64,000 bases of DNA. Origin: an uncultured Actinomycetes bacterium. GTDB taxonomy: Bacteria > Actinomycetota > Thermoleophilia > Gaiellales > Gaiellaceae. The translations under genes and the position numbers were made by a program. This document shows positions 11,867 through 22,629 of this stretch, piece by piece. The stretch covers positions 13,016 through 77,015 of the forward strand of contig CAWIUN010000009.1 in the NCBI GenBank assembly GCA_963839285.1. Direction: 5' to 3'. How positions within the stretch are numbered: the stretch's first letter is position 1; every line of letters begins with the position of its first letter. Below the pieces are notes generated by a model, which did no database searches, was not told the DNA's origin, and was given only the letters and a program-made list of their open reading frames with translations.

Positions 11867-12388
11867 GTGAGGCGGCTCGTCGCGGCGGCGCTCGCGCTCG
11901 GCGCCTACGAGGGACTCGTCCGCGGCGCCGTCACGCTCGACCTCGGGATCGGCCGCCGCGTGCAGCCGCTCGGCCCGCGCACCTGGCTGCTGCCGGCGCC
12001 CCGCGAGCGCGTCTTCGAGCTCGTGGCCGCGGCCTACGCCGAGCGGCGGCCGCGGGCGCTGCAGGCGAAGGTCGAGATCTGGGAGCGCGGCGAGGACATG
12101 GTGCTCGCCGCCCACAGGACGCGCGTCGGCCGCCGCACGGTCGTCACGGTCGAGACCGTCCGGCTCGAGCCGCCGGCGCTGATCGCGTTCCGGCTCGTGC
12201 GCGGCCCGGTGCCGCACGTCGCCGAGACGTTCGAGCTCGAGGAGGCGGACGGCGGCGCGACCCTGACCTGGCGCGGGGAGCTCGGCACCGACCTCGGGCC
12301 GGTCGGCGCCTTCTGGGGACGGCGCGTCGCCGCCGCCTGGGAGGCCGCCGTCGCCGCGTCGATCGCCGAGGTGCGGCACCATCTCTAG
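11867..12388 (+). CDS. SRPBCC (polyketide cyclase/dehydrase-like) family protein
   Basis: 173-aa ORF with high GC3. The pattern APRERVFELV...FRLVRGPVPHVAETFELEE..GGATLTWRGEL is typical of the START/Bet v1-like fold. Confidence 0.55.
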   Translation: MRRLVAAALALGAYEGLVRGAVTLDLGIGRRVQPLGPRTWLLPAPRERVFELVAAAYAERRPRALQAKVEIWERGEDMVLAAHRTRVGRRTVVTVETVRLEPPALIAFRLVRGPVPHVAETFELEEADGGATLTWRGELGTDLGPVGAFWGRRVAAAWEAAVAASIAEVRHHL

Positions 12389-12423: not shown

Positions 12424-13746
12424 GTGAGCGCCGCCGCCGAGACCCGCACGCAGCTCGTCGAAGGGCTGATGGAGCGCTTCCCGCACGTGCCGCGGGAGGC
12501 GGTGCTGAAGGAGGACCTGCTCCGCACCGGCATCGACTTCGACGTCTCGGCCCTGACCGACAACCTCGACGGCGAGGTGAAGCCGAAGTCGTACTTCATC
12601 TTCTCGTTCGACCAGAAGCCGCTCGCGCAGCTCGGCGAGGCGGCGCTGCGGCGGCCGCCGGAGGAGGTGGCGCTGAGCGGCGGCCCCTGGGAGCTGCGGC
12701 GCACGATCGTCTCCGTCCGCGTCAACCCCGGCTCGCCCTACCGCGCCCGGCTCGGCGAGGACGGCGGCCTGCGGCTCGAGCTCGACGGCCGCCCGGTCGC
12801 GGACGTCGCCCTGCCGCCGATGCCCGAGTACTACCGCCACACGCTCGCGAACGGGAAGACCGTGATGGAGACGGCGCCGACGATCCAGTGGGGCTACCTC
12901 GTCTACCTGACCGTGCTGCGCCTCTGCCAGTACTTCGGCGCGCACGAGGAGTGCAAGTTCTGCGACATCAACCACAACTGGCGCCAGCACAAGCGGGCGG
13001 GCCGGCCCTACACCGGGGTGAAGCCGGTCGAGGACGTCGTCGAGGCGCTCGCGCTGATCGACCGCTACGACGACGGCGCCTCGAAGGCGTACACGCTGAC
13101 CGGCGGCTCGGTCACGAGCACCGTCGACGGCCTCGCCGAGGCCGACTTCTACGGCCGCTACGCCCGGGCGATCGAGGAGCGCTTCCCCGGCCGCTGGATC
13201 GGCAAGGTCGTGGCGCAGGCGCTGCCGAAGGCCGACGTCCAGCGCTTCGCCGACTACGGCGTCAAGATCTACCACCCGAACTACGAGGTCTGGGACAAGC
13301 GGCTGTTCGAGATCATCTCCCCCGGCAAGGAGCGCTACGTCGGCCGCGAGGAGTGGCACCGGCGGATCTTCGACGCGGCCGAGGTGTTCGGGCCGCGCTA
13401 CGTGATCCCGAACTTCGTCGCCGGGGTCGAGCTGGCCAGGCCGTTCGGCTTCGCGACCGTCGACGAGGCGATCGCGTCGACGACGGAGGGGCTCGAGTAC
13501 TTCATGAGCCGCGGGATCACGCCCCGCTTCACGACCTGGTGCCCGGAGCCCGCGACCCCGCTCGGGCGCGACAACCCGGAGGGCGCGCCGCTCGAGTACC
13601 ACATCCGCCTGCTCGAGGCCTACCGCGCGACGCTCGAGCGCAACGGGCTCGAGCCGCCGCCCGGCTACGGCCCGGCCGGCCCCGGCAACGCGGTCTTCTC
13701 GGTCAGCTCGTTCATGGACTCGCTCGAGGCGCCGGTGACCGCATGA
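12424..13746 (+). CDS. Radical-SAM-like TIM-barrel enzyme with a non-canonical CX8CX2C cysteine triad and an unassigned 130-aa N-terminal domain
   Basis: Starts at GTG 12424, inside the long 10828..13746 ORF. Core reads LRLCQYFGAHEECKFCDINHNW...TLTGGS...HPNYEVW...NFVAGVEL (GG and GxxE-type radical SAM elements). Only 4 Cys in 440 aa and no CX3CX2C. ATGA overlap with the next gene. Confidence 0.7.
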   Translation: MSAAAETRTQLVEGLMERFPHVPREAVLKEDLLRTGIDFDVSALTDNLDGEVKPKSYFIFSFDQKPLAQLGEAALRRPPEEVALSGGPWELRRTIVSVRVNPGSPYRARLGEDGGLRLELDGRPVADVALPPMPEYYRHTLANGKTVMETAPTIQWGYLVYLTVLRLCQYFGAHEECKFCDINHNWRQHKRAGRPYTGVKPVEDVVEALALIDRYDDGASKAYTLTGGSVTSTVDGLAEADFYGRYARAIEERFPGRWIGKVVAQALPKADVQRFADYGVKIYHPNYEVWDKRLFEIISPGKERYVGREEWHRRIFDAAEVFGPRYVIPNFVAGVELARPFGFATVDEAIASTTEGLEYFMSRGITPRFTTWCPEPATPLGRDNPEGAPLEYHIRLLEAYRATLERNGLEPPPGYGPAGPGNAVFSVSSFMDSLEAPVTA

Positions 13747-14786
13747 CGCGGATCTCGGTCGACGAGGCGCGGGCGCTCTGGCACGAGGCCTCCGACGAGG
13801 AGCTGCGCCGGCTCGCGCAGGAGGCGCGCGGGCGCTTCCACGAGCCCGACCGCGCGACCTACATGGTCATGCGGATCATCAACTACACGAACGTCTGCGT
13901 CGCCCAGTGCGACTACTGCGCCTTCTACGTGCTCCCGAACCGGCCCGGCGGCTACGTGCTCTCGCGCGACGAGGTCTTCGCCAAGATCGACGAGCTGCTC
14001 GAGCTCGGCGGCGACCTCGTCGGCTTCAACGGCGGCTTCAACCCGCGGCTGCCGCTCGACTACTACGCCGACCTCTTCCGCGCCGTGCGCGAGCGCTACG
14101 GCGACCGGGTCGAGTTCTACGCGCTCACGATCGCCGAGTTCCTCTACCTCGCCGACCGCGCCGGCCTCTCGCACGCCGAGGCGGCGGCGCGCCTGCGCGA
14201 GGCGGGCGTCCACTGGGTCACCGGCGGCGGCTCCGAGATCCTGACCGAGGACTTCCGGGCGCGGCACGCCAAGTTCAAGTACACGGTCGCCGACTACTTC
14301 GAGGCGCAGCGGGCGATCGTCGACGCAGGCATGCGGACGACCGCGACGATGGTGATCGGCTTCGACGAGACGCTCGACGAGCGGCTCGAGCACCTGCAGC
14401 GGACGCGCGACTTCCAGGACGGCTGCCTCCGCGACGGCCACGACGGCCTCTTCTCGTTCCTCTGCTGGACGTACAAGCCGTACGGCACCGACCTCGGCGG
14501 CGACGAGATCTCGCCGCAGGAGTACCGGCGCTGGATGGCGCTCTCGCGGATCTTCCTCGACAACGTCAGGCACTTCCGCACCTCGGTGCTGACCCAGAAC
14601 GAGGAGGCGTTCCGCGCGCTCGACTACGGCGCCGACGACTTCGACCTGCCGATCGAGGACGAGGTGACGCAGAAGGCGGGCGCGACGATCGAGCTCGACC
14701 TCGAGGGCCTGCTGGCGGTGCCGCGGAGGCTCGGCTACCGGGTCGAGTACCGCCGCGCCGAGCGGCCCGCGGCGTTCGCGGCCTAG
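13743..14786 (+). CDS. CofH/MqnC/MqnE-family radical SAM enzyme (futalosine-pathway menaquinone biosynthesis)
   Basis: 347 aa. INYTNVCVAQCDYCAF (CX3CX2C), GGFNP, TGGGSEI and MVIGFDET...FLCWTYKP. I cannot distinguish MqnC from MqnE by eye. Confidence 0.85.
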   Translation: MTRISVDEARALWHEASDEELRRLAQEARGRFHEPDRATYMVMRIINYTNVCVAQCDYCAFYVLPNRPGGYVLSRDEVFAKIDELLELGGDLVGFNGGFNPRLPLDYYADLFRAVRERYGDRVEFYALTIAEFLYLADRAGLSHAEAAARLREAGVHWVTGGGSEILTEDFRARHAKFKYTVADYFEAQRAIVDAGMRTTATMVIGFDETLDERLEHLQRTRDFQDGCLRDGHDGLFSFLCWTYKPYGTDLGGDEISPQEYRRWMALSRIFLDNVRHFRTSVLTQNEEAFRALDYGADDFDLPIEDEVTQKAGATIELDLEGLLAVPRRLGYRVEYRRAERPAAFAA

Positions 14787-14830: not shown

Positions 14831-15195
14831 GTGGCCGTCCGGTGGATCAAGCCGAACATCCGCTCCGACCGCTTCGACGAGAGCCGGGCCTTCTACACCG
14901 GGGTGATCGGCCTCGAGGAGGGCAGGCGGCCTCGACTGGATCCTCTTCTTCGGCGGCAGGCGGCGAGAGGTGCAGCTGAGCGTGATGACGCTCGACGTCG
15001 CGGCCGGGCATCCACCCGGACGTCTCGATCGAGGTCGACGACGTCGACGCCGTCCACGAGCGGGCGGTCGCAGCGGGCGCCGAGATCGTCCACCCGCTGA
15101 CCGACGAGGCCTGGGGGCTGCGGCGGTTCTTCGTGCGCGACCCGAACGGGGCGGTCGTCAACGTCACGCAGCACCCGCCGGCCGGGGAGCCTCCC
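14831..15195 (+). CDS. VOC/glyoxalase domain protein; two +1 frameshifts (about 14925 and about 15010); runs without a stop into the cupin ORF
   Basis: VRWIKPNIRSDRFDESRAFYTGVIGLEEG (frame 2), GLDWILFFGG..EVQLSVMTLD (frame 0) and HPDVSIEVDDVDAVHERAVAAGAEIVHPLTDEAWGLRRFFVRDPNGAVVNVTQH (frame 1) together make one complete VOC domain. Confidence 0.6.
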
Positions 15196-15198
15196 CCG

Positions 15199-15735
15199 GT
15201 GCCCGAGGCGCCGCTCGAGCGGACCGAGCAGGGGCTCGTGCCGGCGGGCGAAGGCTGGTTCGTGCTCAACGCCCGCGACGCGCGCTGGCGCGCCGGCGGC
15301 CGTCCCGCGATCTGCGCCTTCGAGGGCGAGCCGAGGTTCGAGCAGCTCGGCCTCAACCTGAACGTGCTCGCGCCGGGCGAGCCGATGTCGATGTACCACT
15401 GGGAGGCCGACCAGGAGGACTTCCTCGTCCTCGAAGGCGAGGCGCTGCTGCTCGTCGAAGGCGAGGAGCGGCCGCTCCGCCGCTGGGATCTCGTCCACTG
15501 CCCGGCCGGGGCGCGGCACACGATCGTCGGCGCCGGCGCGGGGCCCTGCCTCGTGCTCGCGCTCGGCGCGCGCGACCGCTCGGAAGGGCCGGACTGGGGC
15601 GGCTACCCGGTCGACGAGGCGGCCGTGCGGCACGGCGCGGGTGTCGAGCGCGCGACGACCGACCCGCGCGAGGCCTATGCCCGCTTCGCGCAGCGCGCGC
15701 CGACCGGCTACCGGGACGGCTGGCTGCCGGACTGA
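15199..15735 (+). CDS. Cupin domain-containing protein (possibly the C-terminal half of a VOC-cupin fusion)
   Basis: GTG 15199 is preceded by GGGGAG. GEGWFVLNARDARW...GEPMSMYHWEADQEDFLVLEGEALLLVEGEERPLRRWDLVHCPAGARH is a classic cupin two-motif barrel. Same frame as the last VOC segment. Confidence 0.7.
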   Translation: MPEAPLERTEQGLVPAGEGWFVLNARDARWRAGGRPAICAFEGEPRFEQLGLNLNVLAPGEPMSMYHWEADQEDFLVLEGEALLLVEGEERPLRRWDLVHCPAGARHTIVGAGAGPCLVLALGARDRSEGPDWGGYPVDEAAVRHGAGVERATTDPREAYARFAQRAPTGYRDGWLPD

Positions 15736-15737
15736 AG

Positions 15738-16503
15738 CTACGCCGCGGCGCCGGCGGGCGCGACGAAGCGGAGCTCGGGCACCTCGTCGAGCTCGCCGAC
15801 CTGCTGCGCCAGCTCGAGGAAGGTGTAGAGGCCGGCGCGCTCGCGGGGGCCGAAGCGGTAGCGGAGCTTCTCGAAGTAGCGCGCGACGAAGCCGGCCGGG
15901 TAGCCGTAGCGCTCGGAGGCCTCGAAGGCGAGCTGCTCCGGCTCGCTCCGCGCCAGCTGCACCGAGGCGACGAGCGCCTCCTCGAGCGCGCCGATCCCGT
16001 CCGGGGCCGGCTCGCGGACGGCCCAGACGGCGAAGACCATCGGCAGGCCGGTCCGCTCGAGCCAGAGGCGGCCGAGGTCGTAGTGCGGCGTCGGGTCCTC
16101 GAACGAGGAGCGCAGGGCCGCGTCGCCGATCAAGCAGCTTCGCCTCCGCCTCCTCGCCGAGCGGCACGTGCTCGGCGTCGGGGAAGAGCACCTTCGTCAG
16201 CACGACCGAGGTCGCCGACTCGGGCGTGACCGCGACGACGCGCACGCGCTCGGGCGGGGTCTTCGTCACGAGCTGGATCGACTCGACCGCGCCCTCGGAG
16301 GAGACGCAGAGACCCGGCAGCACGCGCAGCCGGTCGGCGTGGCGCGCGTAGGCGATCGAGGAGATCGGGGCGACGTCGATCTCGCCGGCGACGAGCTGCC
16401 GGTTCAGGGTCGTCGGCACGCCCTGCACCTCCTCGTACTCGGCGCCGACCCGGTAGAAGACCGGCGCCATGTTCAGGTAGGAGATGCGGCCCAGCCTGAT
16501 CAC
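15738..16503 (-). CDS. mqnA: Chorismate dehydratase MqnA (futalosine pathway); +1 frameshift near 16133
   Basis: MIRLGRISYLNMAPVFY...GEIDVAPISSIAY...EAKLL joins IGDAALRSSFEDPTPHYDLGRLWLERTGLPMVFAVWAV (ORF 15738..16133) after removal of one base. Confidence 0.85.
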
Positions 16504-16516
16504 GGCTCGGCTCCGG

Positions 16517-17434
16517 TCACGAGACCCGGTCGACGACGGCGTAGGTCAGGGCCTCGAGCTCCTCGCGGTGGAGGGCGCCGTCAAGGAGGCCTCGCGCCTC
16601 GCGGGCGTACTCGAGCGCGACGGCGCGCGAGCGCTCGATCGCGCCCGAGGCGGCGACGCGGATCAGGGCGCCGTCGATCGGCCCGCCGGCCAGCGCCTGC
16701 GCCACCACCTCGTCCTCGCGCGCCGCGAGCAGGAGCGGCAGCGTCGGCGTGCCCTCGCGCAGGTCGGTGCCGGCGATCTTGCCGGTCTCGACCGTCTGGC
16801 CCGCGCAGTCGAGGATGTCGTCGGCGATCTGGAAGGCGATCCCGAGCGCGAGCCCGAAGCGGCCGAGGTCGAGGTCGAAGCCGCCGCCGAGCAGGCACGC
16901 GGCCTCGAACAGCTTCCCCGTCTTGAGGGCGCAGCGCTCGAGGTAGCTCTCGACCGTCGTCGCCGCGTCGTGGGTCTGGCGCCGCTGCAGCGCCTCGCCG
17001 CGGGCGAGGCAGAGCGCCGCGTCGGCGAGGACGGCGACCGCACGCGGGTCGCCGGCGGCGGTCAGCTCCGAGAAGGCGCGCGCGAACAGGTAGTCGCCGG
17101 CCGCGCGCGCCGCGTCGGCGCCGAACACGGACCAGGCGGAGGCGCGGCCGCGCCGCACCTCGGCGCCGTCGATCAGGTCGTCGTGGACGAGCGTCGCCAT
17201 GTGGACGAGCTCGACGGCGACGCCGGCCGCGACCGGGGCGGCGGAGCGCTCGGGCGAGGCGAGGAAGACGAGCAGCGGCCGCAGCCGCTTGCCGCCGGCG
17301 GCGAGGGCCTGCTCGCCGACCGAGGCGACGAGCCCGGGATGGCTCGCGACCGTCCCCTGCAGCCGCTCCTCCAGCTCCTCGAGGTAGGAGTCGAGCCCGG
17401 GCGCCTCGCGGATCGCGGCCAGCGTCGGGATCAC
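16517..17434 (-). CDS. Polyprenyl diphosphate synthase (trans-isoprenyl diphosphate synthase; menaquinone side chain)
   Basis: 305 aa with both aspartate-rich motifs, LVHDDLID and QIADDILD. GKRLRP motif near the N-terminus. Confidence 0.9.
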   Translation of the reverse strand: MIPTLAAIREAPGLDSYLEELEERLQGTVASHPGLVASVGEQALAAGGKRLRPLLVFLASPERSAAPVAAGVAVELVHMATLVHDDLIDGAEVRRGRASAWSVFGADAARAAGDYLFARAFSELTAAGDPRAVAVLADAALCLARGEALQRRQTHDAATTVESYLERCALKTGKLFEAACLLGGGFDLDLGRFGLALGIAFQIADDILDCAGQTVETGKIAGTDLREGTPTLPLLLAAREDEVVAQALAGGPIDGALIRVAASGAIERSRAVALEYAREARGLLDGALHREELEALTYAVVDRVS

Positions 17435-18117
17435 GACGGCACCACCCCGACGTGCAGCGCGACGATCCCGCCGGCGAAGGTGCGGTACTCGACCCCGCGG
17501 AAGCCGCAGGCCTCGAGCAGCCCCGCCAGCTCGCCGACCTGCGGGAAGCGGCGCACGCTCGCCGGCAGGTAGGTGTAGGCGGCGCCGCCCGGGAGCAGCC
17601 GGCCGAGCAGCGGCACGACCCGGTCGAACCAGAGCGAGTAGAAGACCCGCAGCGGGCCCGTCGGCCGCGTGATCTCGAGCACGCCGAGCCGGCCGCCGGG
17701 CCGGAGCACGCGGCGGAGCTCGCGCAGCCCCGCCTCGAGGTCGTCGAGGTTGCGGACGCCGAAGCCGACGGTGGCGGCGTCGAAGGAGCCGTCGGGGAAC
17801 GGCAGCGCGAGCGCGTCCCCCTGCACGAAGCGAAGCTGCGGCGCCTTCCGCCGCGCCCGCTCGAGCATCCGCTCCGAGAAGTCGAGCCCGGTGACGCGCC
17901 CGCCCGCGCGCGCGGCGGCGAGCGCGAGGTCGCCGGTGCCGCAGGCCGCGTCGAGCACCTCGTCTCCCTCGCGGACGACGCGCTCGGCCGTGATCCGGCG
18001 CCAGCGGCGGTCGAGCCCCGCCGTCATCACGCGGTTCATCACGTCGTAGACCGGTGCGATCCGGTCGAACATCGTCCGCACCGCGTCCGGCGCGAGCCTG
18101 CCTGTCTCGGCCGTCAT
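17431..18117 (-). CDS. ubiE: Demethylmenaquinone/ubiquinone methyltransferase UbiE/MenG
   Basis: 228 aa. MFDRIAPVYDVMNRVMTAGLDRRWRR and the SAM motif VLDAACGTGDL. Overlaps the polyprenyl synthase start. Confidence 0.9.
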   Translation of the reverse strand: MTAETGRLAPDAVRTMFDRIAPVYDVMNRVMTAGLDRRWRRITAERVVREGDEVLDAACGTGDLALAAARAGGRVTGLDFSERMLERARRKAPQLRFVQGDALALPFPDGSFDAATVGFGVRNLDDLEAGLRELRRVLRPGGRLGVLEITRPTGPLRVFYSLWFDRVVPLLGRLLPGGAAYTYLPASVRRFPQVGELAGLLEACGFRGVEYRTFAGGIVALHVGVVPS

Positions 18118-18246
18118 TGCCCCTCGCGTTGTATCAGGCTGCCGCCGTCTCCCAGCCGGGCGAGCGGGCTTCCCAGCCTGCCGGCGCCGCGCTCGACGCC
18201 CGCTATGCCGGGGAAGACGCGCACGGCACCTCCCCCGCCGCCACGG

Positions 18247-19080
18247 CTACTGCGGGCCCTTCGAGGCCTCGAGGAAGACCGCGAGCTGGCGCAGCTGCGT
18301 CTCCGTGAAGTCGGCGAAGCTCGGCATCGGCGAGCCCGGGTTGACGCAGCTCGGGCACTTGAGGTGGCGGATCTGGAAGTCGATGCCGAGGTTCTTCGTC
18401 CCGATCTTCGTCAGGTCGGGGGCGCCGAGGTTCGAGGAGCCGGCGCCGAGGTAGGTGTGGCAGTTCATGCAGCCGGACTGCGCGAACAGGCGCGCGCCGG
18501 GCACCGCCGCCTGCGGCAGGTTCTCGCGCTCGACCCAGCTCGGCACCTTCGCGAGCAGCTCGCTGCCGAGCGCCTCCTTCGCGGTCGCGCCCTTGTAGGT
18601 GAGGACGCCCATCGAGACGACGGTCAGGATCGCCGCGACGATCGCGACCGGCCGCCGCGAGAGCCGCCGCTCGGCGCGCAGGTCGAAGAACGGCAGCCCG
18701 AGCAGCAGGATCAGGCAGATCGTCGGGATCCCGATCGTGCCGAGGATGACCGACTCCGGCCACTTGAAGATCCGCAGCAGGTAGAAGAGGAAGTAGAAGT
18801 ACCAGTCCGGCCGCGGGACGAAGTTGATCGTGCCCGGGTCGGCCGGGTCGTCGTAGAGCCGCCCGAGGATGCCGCTCGCGCTCGCGCCGCCGTCGTGGCT
18901 CTCGGCCGCCGTGAACTTCCAGAGGATCGCGAGGCCGACGATCACCGACACGACGACGAGCGACATGATCGTGTCGTGGAGCATCGCGTAGGGGTGGAAC
19001 GGCTTCCCCCGCTCCTTGACGTCGGCCTTGTACTGCTGGAACTCGCTGCGGCGGCGCTGGATCCGGCTGCTAACGGCCAC
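18247..19080 (-). CDS. qcrC: Menaquinol:cytochrome c reductase QcrC-type subunit (cytochrome b subunit-IV-like domain fused to mono-haem cytochrome c)
   Basis: 277 aa. N-terminal 3-TM region with PRPDWYFYFLFYLLR (PEWY-type Qo motif). C-terminal domain carries CMNCH haem-binding and PMP Met-ligand motifs. Same architecture as Bacillus QcrC. Confidence 0.8.
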   Translation of the reverse strand: MAVSSRIQRRRSEFQQYKADVKERGKPFHPYAMLHDTIMSLVVVSVIVGLAILWKFTAAESHDGGASASGILGRLYDDPADPGTINFVPRPDWYFYFLFYLLRIFKWPESVILGTIGIPTICLILLLGLPFFDLRAERRLSRRPVAIVAAILTVVSMGVLTYKGATAKEALGSELLAKVPSWVERENLPQAAVPGARLFAQSGCMNCHTYLGAGSSNLGAPDLTKIGTKNLGIDFQIRHLKCPSCVNPGSPMPSFADFTETQLRQLAVFLEASKGPQ

Positions 19081-19908
19081 GGCCCGTCCCCCGGCTGGTC
19101 GGCTTGACGAGTCCGGCGCGCGCGCCGTTTCCGGACGGGGCGGCGCCGTCGAGCGGACCGCTGCCGGCGGCCTCCTTCGACCAGGGCGGCGAGGAGACGC
19201 CGAGGCGCACGACGAGGTAGAGGTGCAGCCCGATCATCCCCATGATCGCCCCGGGCAGGAGCAGCATGTGGATCGAGTAGAAGCGGCTGAGCGTGCTCCG
19301 GGCCGATCTCGGCCCCACCTCGGAGGAGCGAGGCGATGAAGGGCCCCAGGAACGGCGCCGTGCCGTTGATGTTGACGCCGACCACGGTCGCCCAGTACGC
19401 GGTCTGGTCCCAGGGGAGCAGGTAGCCGGTGAAGCCCTCGAACATGCCGATCGCGAGCAGCAGCACGCCGATGATCCAGTTCAGCTCGCGCGGGTACTTG
19501 TAGGCGCCGAAGAGGAACACGCGCCCCATGTGCATGAACATCAGGATGATGAAGACCGAGGCGCCCCAGCGATGCATGCCGCGGACGAGCCAGCCCCAGG
19601 TCAGGTCGTTGGTGATGTGCTGGATCGACGAGTACGCGACGGCGCGGCCCGTCTGCGGGTCGACCGTCGCGCTCGGCTCGTAGTACATCGCCAGGATCAC
19701 GCCGGTCAGCGCCTGGACGAGGAACGCCGTCAGCGTCGCCGAGCCCAGCGTCTGGAACCAGTCCGTGTCGCCCGGGACCTTGCGGAAGAGGAAGTAGCGG
19801 ACGCCGCCGACGAGGCCGGAGCGCTCCTCGAGCCAGTCGACCGGGTAGAGCGCGGCGCGCCTTCAGCTGCTCGCGGCGCTGCGCGCGGATGTCTGCCCGG
19901 GTCGCCAT
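19070..19908 (-). CDS. qcrB: Cytochrome b6-type subunit QcrB; two frameshifts (about 19855 and about 19300)
   Basis: MATRADIRAQRREQLK / ALYPVDWLEERSGLVGGVRYFLFRKVP...WGWLVRGMHRWGASVFIILMFMHMGRVFLFGAYKYPRELNW...LPWDQTAYWA / TLSRFYSIHMLLLPG is reconstructed from three frames. The His ligand regions are present. Confidence 0.85.
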
Positions 19909-20868
19909 CTAGTGGGGCGCCTGCACCGGGTAGAACCAGCCCTCGGGGCCGTCGACGTGCTGGCCGGGCCCGGTCAGCTCGTAGGCGGTGATCTTCGCGT
20001 TGGCGCCGTTGCCGCTGACCTTGCCGACGCTGTAGTTCTCGAGCAGGACGAGGCGCTGGTTCTTGACCGCGAACGTCCAGCGGTCGAGGCCGCGCACCGG
20101 CGGGCCGGCGGTGCGGTTGCCCTCGGTGTCGTAGGCGCCGCCGTGGCAGGGGCAGATGAAGCCGCCGGCCGGGGTCGTCGGGATCAGCGTCACCTCGTTC
20201 TCCTTGGTCTTCACCGTCTTCGACTGGTCGTCGAGGATCGGGCCGCCGGGCTGCACCGGACAGCCGAGGTGCGCGCAGCGGTTCGAGATCACGGTGAAGC
20301 TCGGGACGCCCTTCAGGAGCCCGTTGTTGCGGACGTAGGCCGTCCGCCGCGAGACCTCGCCCTTCGACGGGTCCTCCATGAAGGTCGCGACCATGAACTG
20401 GCCCTCGGGGAAGTTCGAGACCGGGCCGAGGTCGATCTCCGGATGGCCCTGGTGCAGGAACGGCGGCAGCACCGCGAAGCCGACGACCGGCACGGTGACG
20501 ATGGCGCCGATGACGCCGCCGAGGCCGAGCGTCGCGCCCTCGAGGAACGTCGAGCGCGGGAACCGCTCGGCGCCCCCGTAGTGCGGCATCGCGGGGCCGG
20601 CCTCCTGCGCGGGCAGGGCCGGGCCGGTCGGGCGCTCGGGCGCCCCTTCCTCCTCGACGGGGGTCGCCTCGACCGCCGCGTCGCGGCCGGTCGCGAGCTC
20701 GCGCACCCAGAGGAAGCCGAAGGCGACCGCGATCGCCGCGCCGATCCCGGCGACGATCCAGGAGATGACCAGGCCGACGAGCAGCGTGGCGACGCCGACG
20801 GCGAAGCCGACGGGCCAGAGGCTGGGACCGGGCAGGTCGTGCCGGTCGTGCTGGGGCGTGGGCTCCAC
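19909..20868 (-). CDS. qcrA: Rieske [2Fe-2S] subunit QcrA with an extended 3-TM N-terminal region
   Basis: CAHLGC and CPCHGG cluster boxes. GTG 20868 was chosen because the ATG at 20967 would overlap the UbiD gene by about 60 nt; the start remains uncertain. Confidence 0.85.
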   Translation of the reverse strand: MEPTPQHDRHDLPGPSLWPVGFAVGVATLLVGLVISWIVAGIGAAIAVAFGFLWVRELATGRDAAVEATPVEEEGAPERPTGPALPAQEAGPAMPHYGGAERFPRSTFLEGATLGLGGVIGAIVTVPVVGFAVLPPFLHQGHPEIDLGPVSNFPEGQFMVATFMEDPSKGEVSRRTAYVRNNGLLKGVPSFTVISNRCAHLGCPVQPGGPILDDQSKTVKTKENEVTLIPTTPAGGFICPCHGGAYDTEGNRTAGPPVRGLDRWTFAVKNQRLVLLENYSVGKVSGNGANAKITAYELTGPGQHVDGPEGWFYPVQAPH

Positions 20869-20905
20869 TAGGCGGTGGGATTCAAGCTGGCGGTGGTGGT
20901 GAGCG

Positions 20906-22414
20906 TCAACGTCGCAACAGATGACGCAACGGGGACGAACTATGACGCACGCTGCCGTCGGACGCACGGAGAACCGAGTCGAGCCCGTACTCGGACCAGC
21001 GACGGTCGACGAGCTCCCGGATCTCGTCGCTCATCCGGATCTCCTCCGGCCACGGCCGGGCACCCTCCGCGGGGCCCTTGGCGGTCGCGTCGACGCCGAT
21101 CTTGCCGCCGACGAACTGGAGCGTCGGCGCGTGGTCGAGCTGGTCGAGCGGGCCCTCGGTGATGACGACGTCGCGCTTCGGATCGACGTTGGCGCCGACG
21201 TAGAAGAGCACCTGGGCGTAGTCGTGCACGTCGACGTGCTCGTCGACGACGACGACCGCCTTCGTCAGGCTCAGCATCCCGAGGCCCCAGATCGCGTGCA
21301 TGACCTTGCGGGCATGGCCGGGGAAGGCCTTGCGGATCGAGACGATCGCGCAGTTGTGGAAGGCGCCGGCGACAGGCAGGTCGTAGTCGACGATCTCCGG
21401 CACGGTCATCCGCACGGCGGGCAGGAAGATCCGCTCGGTCGCCTTGCCGAGCCAGGCGTCCTCCTGCGGCGGCTTGCCGACGACGATCGACGGGTAGATC
21501 GCGTCGCGCCGCATCGTCATCGCGGTCACGTGGAAGACCGGGAACGGCTCCGGCGGCGTGTAGAAGCCGGTGTGGTCGCCGAAGGGGCCCTCCTCGCCGA
21601 GCTCGTCGGTCTCGACGTAGCCCTCGAGCACGATCTCGGCGTCCGCGGGCACCTCCACGTCGACCGTCTTGCCCTTGACGACGCCGACCGGCGCGCCCCT
21701 GAGGAAGCCGGCGAGCATCAGCTCGTCGAGGTGCTTGGGCAGCGGCGCCGAGGCCGCGTAGGCGGTGATCGGGTCGAGCCCGAGCGCGACCGCGACCTCG
21801 ATCCGGCCGTCGGTCGCGAGCCAGTCGGCGCGCCCGTCCTTGTGGATCTGCCAGTGCATGAAGGTGGTGCGGCGGTCGATCTTCTGCATCCGGTACATGC
21901 CGACGTTGCGCCCGCCCGTGCGCGGGTCGTGGGTGAGGACGGCCGGGAGGGTGATGAACGGCGCCGGGTCGCCGGGCCAGCAGTGCTGGATCGGCAGCAG
22001 GTCGAGGTCGACGTCGTCGCCGGTCAGGACGACCTCCTGGCAGGGCCCGCCGCGCACCTGCTTCGCGCGCGAGTCGGCGATCGACTTCAGCGTCCGCAGG
22101 CCGCGCACCTTGTCGGCGAGGCCCTGCGGCGGCTGCAGCTCCAGCACGCCCGAGAGCCGCTCGGCGACGTCGTCGAGCCGTTCGACCCCGAAGGCCATGC
22201 ACATCCGCCGCTCGGTGCCGAACTGGTTGATCAGCAGCGGGTGGCGGGCGCCGGCGACGCGCTCGAAGAGGAGCGCCGGGCCGCCGGCCTTGACCGTGCG
22301 GTCGACGATCTCGGTGATCTCGAGACGCGCGTCGACCTCGGCCTGCACGCGGACGAGCTCGCCCTCGCGCTCCAGCAGCGCGATCCAGTCGCGGAGGTCG
22401 GCGGGAGGAGCCAT
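20906..22414 (-). CDS. UbiD family (prenylated-FMN dependent) decarboxylase, menaquinone biosynthesis type
   Basis: 502 aa from ATG 22414 (GGGAGG upstream). LLINQFGTERRM...GRNVGMYRMQ...GPFGDHTGFY are UbiD hallmarks. No frameshift. Confidence 0.9.
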   Translation of the reverse strand: MAPPADLRDWIALLEREGELVRVQAEVDARLEITEIVDRTVKAGGPALLFERVAGARHPLLINQFGTERRMCMAFGVERLDDVAERLSGVLELQPPQGLADKVRGLRTLKSIADSRAKQVRGGPCQEVVLTGDDVDLDLLPIQHCWPGDPAPFITLPAVLTHDPRTGGRNVGMYRMQKIDRRTTFMHWQIHKDGRADWLATDGRIEVAVALGLDPITAYAASAPLPKHLDELMLAGFLRGAPVGVVKGKTVDVEVPADAEIVLEGYVETDELGEEGPFGDHTGFYTPPEPFPVFHVTAMTMRRDAIYPSIVVGKPPQEDAWLGKATERIFLPAVRMTVPEIVDYDLPVAGAFHNCAIVSIRKAFPGHARKVMHAIWGLGMLSLTKAVVVVDEHVDVHDYAQVLFYVGANVDPKRDVVITEGPLDQLDHAPTLQFVGGKIGVDATAKGPAEGARPWPEEIRMSDEIRELVDRRWSEYGLDSVLRASDGSVRHSSSPLRHLLRR

Positions 22415-22425
22415 CTCGCGCGAGT

Positions 22426-22629
22426 CTAGAGGCTCGCTGCGTGTCGGCCGCGGCCAGCTGCGCCGCAAGTCGGCCGGCTAGTAGCGCCGGCGGCGGCGGC
22501 GCGGCGGGCGCTGCGGCGGCCGCCGACGACGTGCGTGAGCTCGCCGAGCACGGCGACGCCGAGGAAGATCAGCCCGACGACCAGCATCACGAGGATGACG
22601 CTGACGCCTTCGGAGGTCGCGAGGAGCAC
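22426..22629 (-). CDS. Hypothetical small membrane protein
   Basis: 67-aa ORF with one clear TM helix (VSVILVMLVVGLIFLGVAVLG), followed by an Arg/Ala-rich tail. No recognisable family. Confidence 0.3.
   Translation of the reverse strand: MLLATSEGVSVILVMLVVGLIFLGVAVLGELTHVVGGRRSARRAAAAGATSRPTCGAAGRGRHAASL

Follow-up and report, generated by a model that had tools for sequence, protein, structure and literature searches.

A variant radical SAM protein of Gaiellales as a probable counterpart of the aminofutalosine synthase MqnE

Background

MqnE is among the few radical S-adenosylmethionine (SAM) enzymes that add the adenosyl radical to their substrate instead of abstracting hydrogen, and it is regarded as a fixed step that the futalosine pathway cannot do without, and as a target for antibacterials. 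Here we analyse a 64,000-nt stretch of DNA (hereafter the window) from an uncultured bacterium of the family Gaiellaceae, order Gaiellales (assembly GCA_963839285.1, contig CAWIUN010000009.1, positions 13,016 to 77,015), which encodes a radical SAM protein with a CX8CX2C cluster motif. We will call this protein, encoded at positions 12424-13746 (+) of the window, vrSAM, and the product of the gene coupled to it (13743-14786, +) divMqnC. An earlier note on this DNA, made from the sequence alone, had suggested that vrSAM could be a divergent replacement for one of the two radical SAM enzymes of the pathway, MqnE or MqnC, or could carry out a step not yet described. Our results support the idea of a replacement and, of the two enzymes, speak for MqnE: vrSAM and MqnE occur in a complementary manner across four lineages, and decayed MqnE genes are present in vrSAM genomes.

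Of the described systems, MqnE (TIGR03700, structure 6xi9) resembles vrSAM in its full-barrel radical SAM fold, in a PGK motif and by remote profile homology. The two are also alike in place, as in the related genome G015 vrSAM directly follows mqnA in an operon without mqnE. They differ in their cluster motif, which is CX3CX2C in MqnE, in ~150 extra N-terminal residues carried by vrSAM, and in sequence, with ~15% identity in the structural alignment. vrSAM falls into NCBIfam NF045502, and CX8CX2C is given as the cluster motif of several uncharacterised RadicalSAM.org megaclusters (4-6-x; PMC9477430); both are sequence groupings to which no function is assigned. HydE, PylB, BioB, ThiH, HydG and LipA are the best structural matches of vrSAM (Z 14.6-16.0 over ~240-250 residues), but their identity is 10-15% and their genomic context differs. 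Cysteines for an auxiliary cluster are absent from vrSAM, whose only further cysteine is Cys373. As for the coupled gene, divMqnC shares with MqnC (TIGR03699) the CX3CX2C motif, the CofH_C domain and 38% identity, and takes its phyletic place; unlike MqnC, it forms a separate clade, scores below the cut-off and was found only together with vrSAM.

In the literature, we found no description of an alternative to MqnE or of the vrSAM family. The complementarity of vrSAM and MqnE, the MqnE relics, the two-by-two pattern of enzyme combinations and the Streptomyces orthologue as an experimental route are new here.

Distribution of vrSAM and of the canonical enzymes

In Gaiellales, the vrSAM-divMqnC pair displaces mqnE and mqnC within the same super-operon. 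The comparison set consisted of 40 relatives, and matches above 434 bits (MqnE) or 428 bits (MqnC) were called canonical. vrSAM was present in two of these relatives, G001 from the same genus (87% identity) and G015 (81% identity; 93% complete, 10 contigs). Precisely these two were without canonical MqnE and MqnC, their MqnC/E-type matches being limited to divMqnC and FbiC. The other reasonably complete relatives carried both MqnE (~440-477 bits) and MqnC (~436-498 bits), ~2 kb apart. Some of the remaining relatives had mqnE or mqnC fragments at contig ends or with frameshifts, and two incomplete metagenome-assembled genomes (MAGs), G020 (64% complete) and G035 (78%), contained neither vrSAM nor a clear MqnE. 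In the window's own genome, a MAG of 3.7 Mb with 81.5% completeness whose best protein matches are named Gaiellaceae, canonical MqnE and MqnC were not found.

The replacement can be followed in the gene order. The canonical arrangement, represented by G014, runs UbiD, qcrABC, UbiX, ubiE, polyprenyl synthase, mqnE, a 139-aa gene, mqnA, mqnC, a 457-aa gene, DedA and DegT. In G015, ubiE and the polyprenyl synthase gene are followed by mqnA, vrSAM and divMqnC and, further on, by DedA and DegT. In the window and in G001, the vrSAM-divMqnC pair is inverted and convergent with mqnA. A locus scan with one genome per species and a 10-row alignment yielded 80 loci (83-88% identity); in ~68 of these species loci, vrSAM is followed by divMqnC at the same site. 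Canonical MqnE or MqnC was lacking from 32 of the 33 tested vrSAM-divMqnC genomes. The exception, G578, harbours vrSAM, MqnE (435.7 bits) and divMqnC and lacks canonical MqnC, in keeping with an MqnC function of divMqnC.

The same relationship was observed in Gemmatimonadota. Among 121 genomes, vrSAM was present in three (G441, G539 and G548; 75-84% identity), and exactly the same three carried an orthologue of divMqnC (79-80% identity), there unlinked to vrSAM, on other contigs or ~230 kb away. Canonical MqnE, counted at E < 1e-100, was detected in 86 of the 118 vrSAM-free genomes and in none of the three carriers. G441 is a complete 5.8-Mb Gemmatimonadales chromosome (OY969570.1), which keeps MqnA, MqnD and the canonical futalosine hydrolase MqnB (216.7 bits); a nucleoside intermediate is therefore still to be expected. 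The third of the three cases, G539, is an unpublished genome, and the unpublished genomes G021 and G499 enter canonical tallies only. We also noticed that the divMqnC orthologue of G441 (L101, G441:C1:1888311-1889339) contains one in-frame TAG, possibly due to a sequencing error or to pseudogenization. In the vrSAM tree, the Gemmatimonadota sequences are nested inside Gaiellales, those of Streptomyces and G015 are basal, and the whole group is placed on a very long branch apart from the rest of the family.

In other genomes, vrSAM occurs beside canonical MqnC. Three related MAGs (G596, G598 and G599) possess a stand-alone vrSAM and canonical MqnC (469-482 bits) in a super-operon that is otherwise canonical; neither MqnE nor divMqnC was found in them. 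Just upstream of mqnA, all three MAGs contain an MqnE relic, a 184-aa open reading frame (ORF) in which MqnE residues 9-60 are fused to residues 220-359 (L203:7864-8418, +; also L202 and L204). The internal deletion removes the Fe-S motif and the SAM core.

All ten Streptomyces sampled contained vrSAM (76-78% identity), orthologues in S. lividans and S. violaceoruber included, and the Streptomyces vrSAM cluster comprises 2819 members, all of which are named 'radical SAM protein'. In Streptomyces G322 (100% complete, 5 contigs), UbiX adjoins a relic of MqnE that is 331 aa long and devoid of the CX3CX2C loop (L205:5141-6136, -); the genome has intact MqnC (453 bits) and vrSAM as well as two intact MqnA/D-family genes. 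This relic, whose frame is open, may be kept for a non-catalytic role. G322 was the only high-quality genome among 401 Actinomycetota in which an MqnC-type match was not accompanied by MqnE; in G258, a fragmented genome (88% complete, 360 contigs), both MqnE and vrSAM were missing. In passing, another Streptomyces genome carries, at a great distance from its main set, a second complete one, with MqnC, MqnE and two genes of the MqnA/D family inside 6 kb (G094:C1:8053468-8059340), and this second set may belong to a natural-product cluster.

Taken together, nearly every genome examined had one of MqnE and vrSAM, and one of MqnC and divMqnC. MqnE is combined with MqnC in most genomes, vrSAM with divMqnC in Gaiellales and Gemmatimonadota, and vrSAM with MqnC in G596, G598, G599 and G322. 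Three genes were found in Streptomyces (vrSAM, MqnE and MqnC) and in G578 (vrSAM, MqnE and divMqnC). The exceptions to the one-of-each pattern were the incomplete MAGs G258, G020, G035 and G597.

A metagenome scan with distant seeds revealed a clade with 51-62% identity to the window's vrSAM. An MqnA-family gene directly adjoins vrSAM in five of the 23 loci of this clade. The gene order in two loci (L142 and L143) is MqnA-family gene, PNP_UDP nucleosidase, vrSAM, 5-enolpyruvylshikimate-3-phosphate (EPSP) synthase (AroA) and shikimate dehydrogenase (AroE), which by its gene content is a predicted chorismate-to-futalosine operon with vrSAM at the place expected for MqnE. Co-occurrence of vrSAM homologues with mqn genes, which the earlier note had proposed to examine by neighbourhood statistics, is thus found in several lineages. 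A more remote clade, at ~40% identity, occurs in clusters composed of UbiD, the vrSAM-like gene, an old yellow enzyme (OYE) reductase, an AMP-forming coenzyme A (CoA) ligase, a second UbiD and the tripartite ATP-independent periplasmic (TRAP) transporter gene DctP. This context looks like aromatic-acid catabolism, that is, a putative aromatic-carboxylate pathway with a radical SAM step. The loci of this clade are L122-L134, L163 and L171 (for example L128:4293-12451), and MmgE/PrpD, TctC and Amidohydro_2 genes lie nearby. Among the distant Actinomycetota paralogues (24-37% identity), none was located near mqn genes.

Features of vrSAM and divMqnC

The vrSAM gene starts with GTG and encodes 440 amino acids, and its third-position GC is ~1.0 from end to end, in a window with a GC content of ~74%. 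Its TGA stop codon (13744-13746) overlaps the ATG of divMqnC at 13743, so the ATGA junction described in the earlier note indeed lies at 13743-13746. The protein has exactly four cysteines (168, 177, 180 and 373), and C168-X8-C177-X2-C180 is its sole cluster-type motif, just as had been read from the sequence. Across 44 homologues (25-78% identity), the triad C168, C177 and C180 is invariant, together with G228 (in TLTGGS), P300-G301-K302, G334 and G342. Nearly invariant are E288 and W290 (NYEVW), E336 (GVEL) and G227 of the TGG motif. Radical SAM barrel elements had been recognised beforehand in the segments that hold these residues (TLTGGS, NYEVW and GVEL), and this was confirmed.

By NCBIfam, vrSAM belongs to NF045502 'variant_rSAM' (155.2 bits, cut-off 125, residues 27-382), an uncharacterised family with the product name 'radical SAM protein'. 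The family is small, with 693 representatives at 50% identity (E <= 0.001). The match to Pfam PF04055 (Radical_SAM) is below threshold (23.4 bits, gathering score 29.5, E 7.5e-5) because the cluster loop is expanded: the classical CX3CX2C motif is missing and CX8CX2C is found instead. No match to TIGR03700, the model of MqnE (cut-off 434.55 bits), was obtained at E <= 1, and vrSAM is therefore not a member of that family; with TIGR04043 (MSMEG_0568 family) it scores 26.1 bits, below the cut-off of 303.7. Matches in the ESM Atlas were limited to 'radical SAM protein' clusters, and a sequence-profile search of the PDB returned weak matches to BioB only (E 1e-6). The family search advised in the earlier note thus ended in an uncharacterised family and brought up no well-characterised one unrelated to menaquinone.

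An AlphaFold2 model based on a 44-row alignment reached a predicted local distance difference test (pLDDT) of 94.6 and a predicted template modelling score (pTM) of 0.94. The model contains the radical SAM (beta/alpha) barrel with a GGE-like SAM motif. Its structural matches (Foldseek and VIA-align) are all radical SAM barrels, with Foldseek E-values of 1e-8 to 1e-5. The Z-scores are 16.0 for HydE, 15.9 for PylB, 15.6-15.7 for lipoyl synthase (LipA) and 14.6-15.1 for HydG, BioB and ThiH; the MqnE structure 6xi9 gives Z 15.2 (250 residues aligned, root-mean-square deviation 4.0, 15% identity). As these values are tied, the fold indicates the full-barrel group of radical SAM proteins and nothing finer. 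In hhalign, vrSAM aligned with divMqnC, MqnC, MqnE and CofH at a probability of 96.9% (E 1.4e-10, 199 columns). C177 and C180 fall on the CxxC of this clade, and the invariant PGK of vrSAM on its A-P-x-K motif, which reads PGK in MqnE. By its modelled fold and these alignments, vrSAM is predicted to be a barrel of the HydE/PylB/BioB/MqnE type that is remotely homologous to the MqnC/MqnE/CofH clade.

Pfam assigns nothing to the first ~150 residues. Folded alone, the N-terminal 155 residues gave a pLDDT of 84.6, and among 48,161 PDB chains no solved structure matched this fold (best Z 2.6), so no fold can be named for the region, which had appeared unassignable already in the earlier note. As the NF045502 match extends over residues 27-382, the N-terminal region belongs to the family model, and it may not be an independent domain.

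Regarding divMqnC, it scores 294.8 bits against TIGR03699 (MqnC; cut-off 428.1) and 192.6 bits against TIGR03700 (cut-off 434.6), and shares 38% identity with canonical MqnC and 26-27% with MqnE of related genomes. Its Joint Genome Institute (JGI) product name is 'cyclic dehypoxanthinyl futalosine synthase'. The gene had been taken for a canonical member of the MqnC/MqnE family; its CX3CX2C motif agrees with this, but its scores stay below every curated cut-off and the protein has to be regarded as divergent. A complex prediction for vrSAM and divMqnC (score 0.00) gave no verdict and was used neither way.

Proposed role of vrSAM and alternative explanations

That vrSAM acts somewhere in the futalosine pathway appears very probable to us. 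Judging from phyletic complementarity and gene context, we further consider it likely that vrSAM is an analogous aminofutalosine synthase, i.e. that it fulfils the function of MqnE, as it is present where MqnE has been lost or has decayed. According to this model, vrSAM would be a radical enzyme that uses a [4Fe-4S] cluster and SAM, a distant relative of the MqnE/MqnC/CofH clade elaborated by a longer cluster loop and by additional N-terminal residues. It would form aminofutalosine by adding the 5'-deoxyadenosyl radical of SAM to 3-enolpyruvyl-benzoate, which MqnA produces. The later cyclisation would then be carried out by divMqnC, for which we propose the dehypoxanthinyl-futalosine cyclase (MqnC) step, and MqnA, MqnD and the late UbiD, UbiE and prenyl steps would be kept. 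For vrSAM, we infer substrate, product and adenosyl-addition chemistry: MqnA is retained, which fits 3-enolpyruvyl-benzoate as an unchanged substrate, and nucleosidases are retained, which fits an adenosylated product. Three outcomes had been named beforehand as speaking against a replacement, and the opposite was observed each time: the family is uncharacterised, the cysteine triad is invariant, and the window's genome has no separate canonical mqnC or mqnE, with homologues co-occurring with mqn genes in several lineages.

Several observations weigh against an MqnE-like function. MqnE is structurally no closer to vrSAM than are HydE, PylB, LipA, BioB and ThiH, all within one Z unit. Nine of the ten vrSAM-carrying Streptomyces also possess intact MqnE (~540 bits), and vrSAM is surrounded in Streptomyces by a conserved neighbourhood of a non-mqn kind (sugar ATP-binding cassette (ABC) transporter, ROK regulator, FAD/ALO oxidase, RsgA and Ada). 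If vrSAM does replace MqnE, Streptomyces would thus represent an unexplained redundancy, or vrSAM would have another role there. In the sampled genomes, divMqnC was never seen without vrSAM, and this confinement could mean an intermediate other than aminofutalosine. The occurrence of the ~40% clade in UbiD, CoA-ligase and TRAP clusters indicates that the wider family is not confined to menaquinone biosynthesis. Finally, many of the genomes are MAGs, and as related genomes are not independent, the number of independent events (~4-5) is smaller than the counts suggest.

A bolder proposal, which we regard as doubtful, is that vrSAM does not follow the chemistry of MqnE and converts the MqnA product, or chorismate, into a different radical adduct, so that the early part of the futalosine pathway would exist in a third variant. 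With its ~40% cousins it would then constitute an aromatic-carboxylate radical SAM family, which Streptomyces would run in parallel to MqnE for a separate purpose.

It is also possible, if unlikely, that vrSAM belongs to the futalosine pathway with a different or additional reaction and that the middle section of the pathway is rerouted instead of one enzyme being exchanged for another. For example, vrSAM could make an altered adduct whose cyclisation only divMqnC can perform, or the two proteins could act jointly in the manner of CofG and CofH. The restriction of divMqnC to vrSAM genomes, the coupling or adjacency of the two genes in Gaiellales, the position of divMqnC in a separate clade 38% identical to MqnC and the persistence of vrSAM beside a full canonical pathway in Streptomyces would all be in line with this. 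However, in G596, G598, G599 and Streptomyces G322, vrSAM is accompanied by canonical MqnC and divMqnC is absent, which indicates that divMqnC is not required and that canonical MqnC can use the product of the pathway. Moreover, MqnB and PNP_UDP nucleosidases are retained, adjacent or elsewhere in the genome, in agreement with aminofutalosine or futalosine as the intermediate.

Quite improbable, in our opinion, is a function of vrSAM as an accessory to a UbiD-type decarboxylase and its prenylated flavin mononucleotide (prFMN), or as an aromatic-carboxylate enzyme, with a link to mqn genes via MqnL and not via MqnE. Such a function would accord with the position of the ~40% clade between or beside UbiD-family genes with CoA ligase, OYE reductase and TRAP transporters, and with the UbiD gene in the window's own super-operon. 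However, it leaves unexplained why, in the Gaiellales, Gemmatimonadota and MAG samples, vrSAM accompanies the loss or decay of MqnE and is lacking from almost all other futalosine genomes with UbiD; Streptomyces, which has both, is the exception. The 51-62% clade is associated with MqnA, nucleosidase, AroA and AroE and not with UbiD, and very long branches split the ~40% clade from that of the window.

As for a protein unrelated to menaquinone, whose pattern would be a by-product of the transfer of a two-gene cassette combined with incomplete MAGs, the location of Streptomyces vrSAM away from mqn genes, the many MAGs and the horizontal spread between Gaiellales and Gemmatimonadota suggested by the tree would be compatible with it, but we consider it highly improbable, given that the pattern also holds in a Gemmatimonadales chromosome that is complete and in a Streptomyces genome with 100% completeness, that the MqnE relics occupy the expected operon position, and that adjacency to MqnA-family genes recurs in the second clade (51-62% identity).

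Genomic neighbourhood of the window

The surroundings of the pair contain mqnA, polyprenyl synthase, ubiE and UbiD-type genes, as the earlier note had described, with the qualification that mqnA carries a 1-nt insertion. The mqnA gene (chorismate dehydratase family, VitK2_biosynth; 15738-16503, -) is convergent with the pair and matches PF02621 in two pieces. It is split over two frames, having one extra T near 16132 in comparison with its G001 orthologue from the same genus, and the insertion represents either a MAG assembly error or a recent pseudogene. At higher coordinates, the same strand carries genes for a polyprenyl diphosphate synthase (16517-17434, -; PF00348, 180 bits) and a UbiE/MenG-type demethylmenaquinone methyltransferase (17431-18117, -; TIGR01934, 221.8 bits, above the cut-off). 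Next come qcrC, qcrB and qcrA of the menaquinol:cytochrome c reductase (18247-20967, -), with Cytochrom_B_C and Rieske domains and synteny with G014 and G015, and a gene for an MqnL-like UbiD-type decarboxylase (20906-22468, -) with UbiD, UbiD_N and UbiD_C domains. Between qcrC and ubiE, at the site where G014 and G015 carry ubiX, the window's genus has a gap of 130 nt (18117-18247). The best UbiX-like match in the own genome is partial (47% identity) and is located on another contig (C20:968016-968384).

The genes immediately flanking the pair do not appear to be parts of the module. An SRPBCC (Polyketide_cyc2) gene lies 35 nt upstream of vrSAM (11867-12388, +; PF10604, 40 bits) and was rejected, as tblastn found it in none of the 80 related loci. 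Likewise rejected was the downstream cupin gene, which is rare among these loci. The cupin ORF (15133-15735, +), placed between divMqnC and mqnA, is not conserved at this position in most related loci, and the interval 14831-15735 (+), if read as a single frame, contains two stop codons.

The own genome has two MqnA/MqnD-family genes, one of which is the mqnA of the window. A possible second MqnC/E paralogue hidden on contig C29 turned out to be the F420 enzyme FbiC/CofGH (1082 bits) and was dismissed. The earlier note's question about a further paralogue is thus answered: besides divMqnC, the genome has FbiC/CofGH only and no separate canonical mqnC or mqnE. The fused FO synthase is intact (G000:C29:68293-70617, equal to L001:349-2673; 774 aa), and from this it follows that the genome probably makes coenzyme F420.

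Conclusions

If vrSAM indeed performs the step of MqnE, a second, structurally distinct enzyme with a CX8CX2C cluster loop and a new N-terminal region would exist for it, which would represent an independent solution to an unusual chemistry, and a first function would be assigned to part of NCBIfam NF045502. As an orthologue of vrSAM is present in every Streptomyces sampled, its function can be tested by ordinary genetics in a model organism. For the abundant soil Gaiellales and for some Gemmatimonadota, which appear to lack MqnE in current annotation, the predictions of the futalosine pathway would be corrected.

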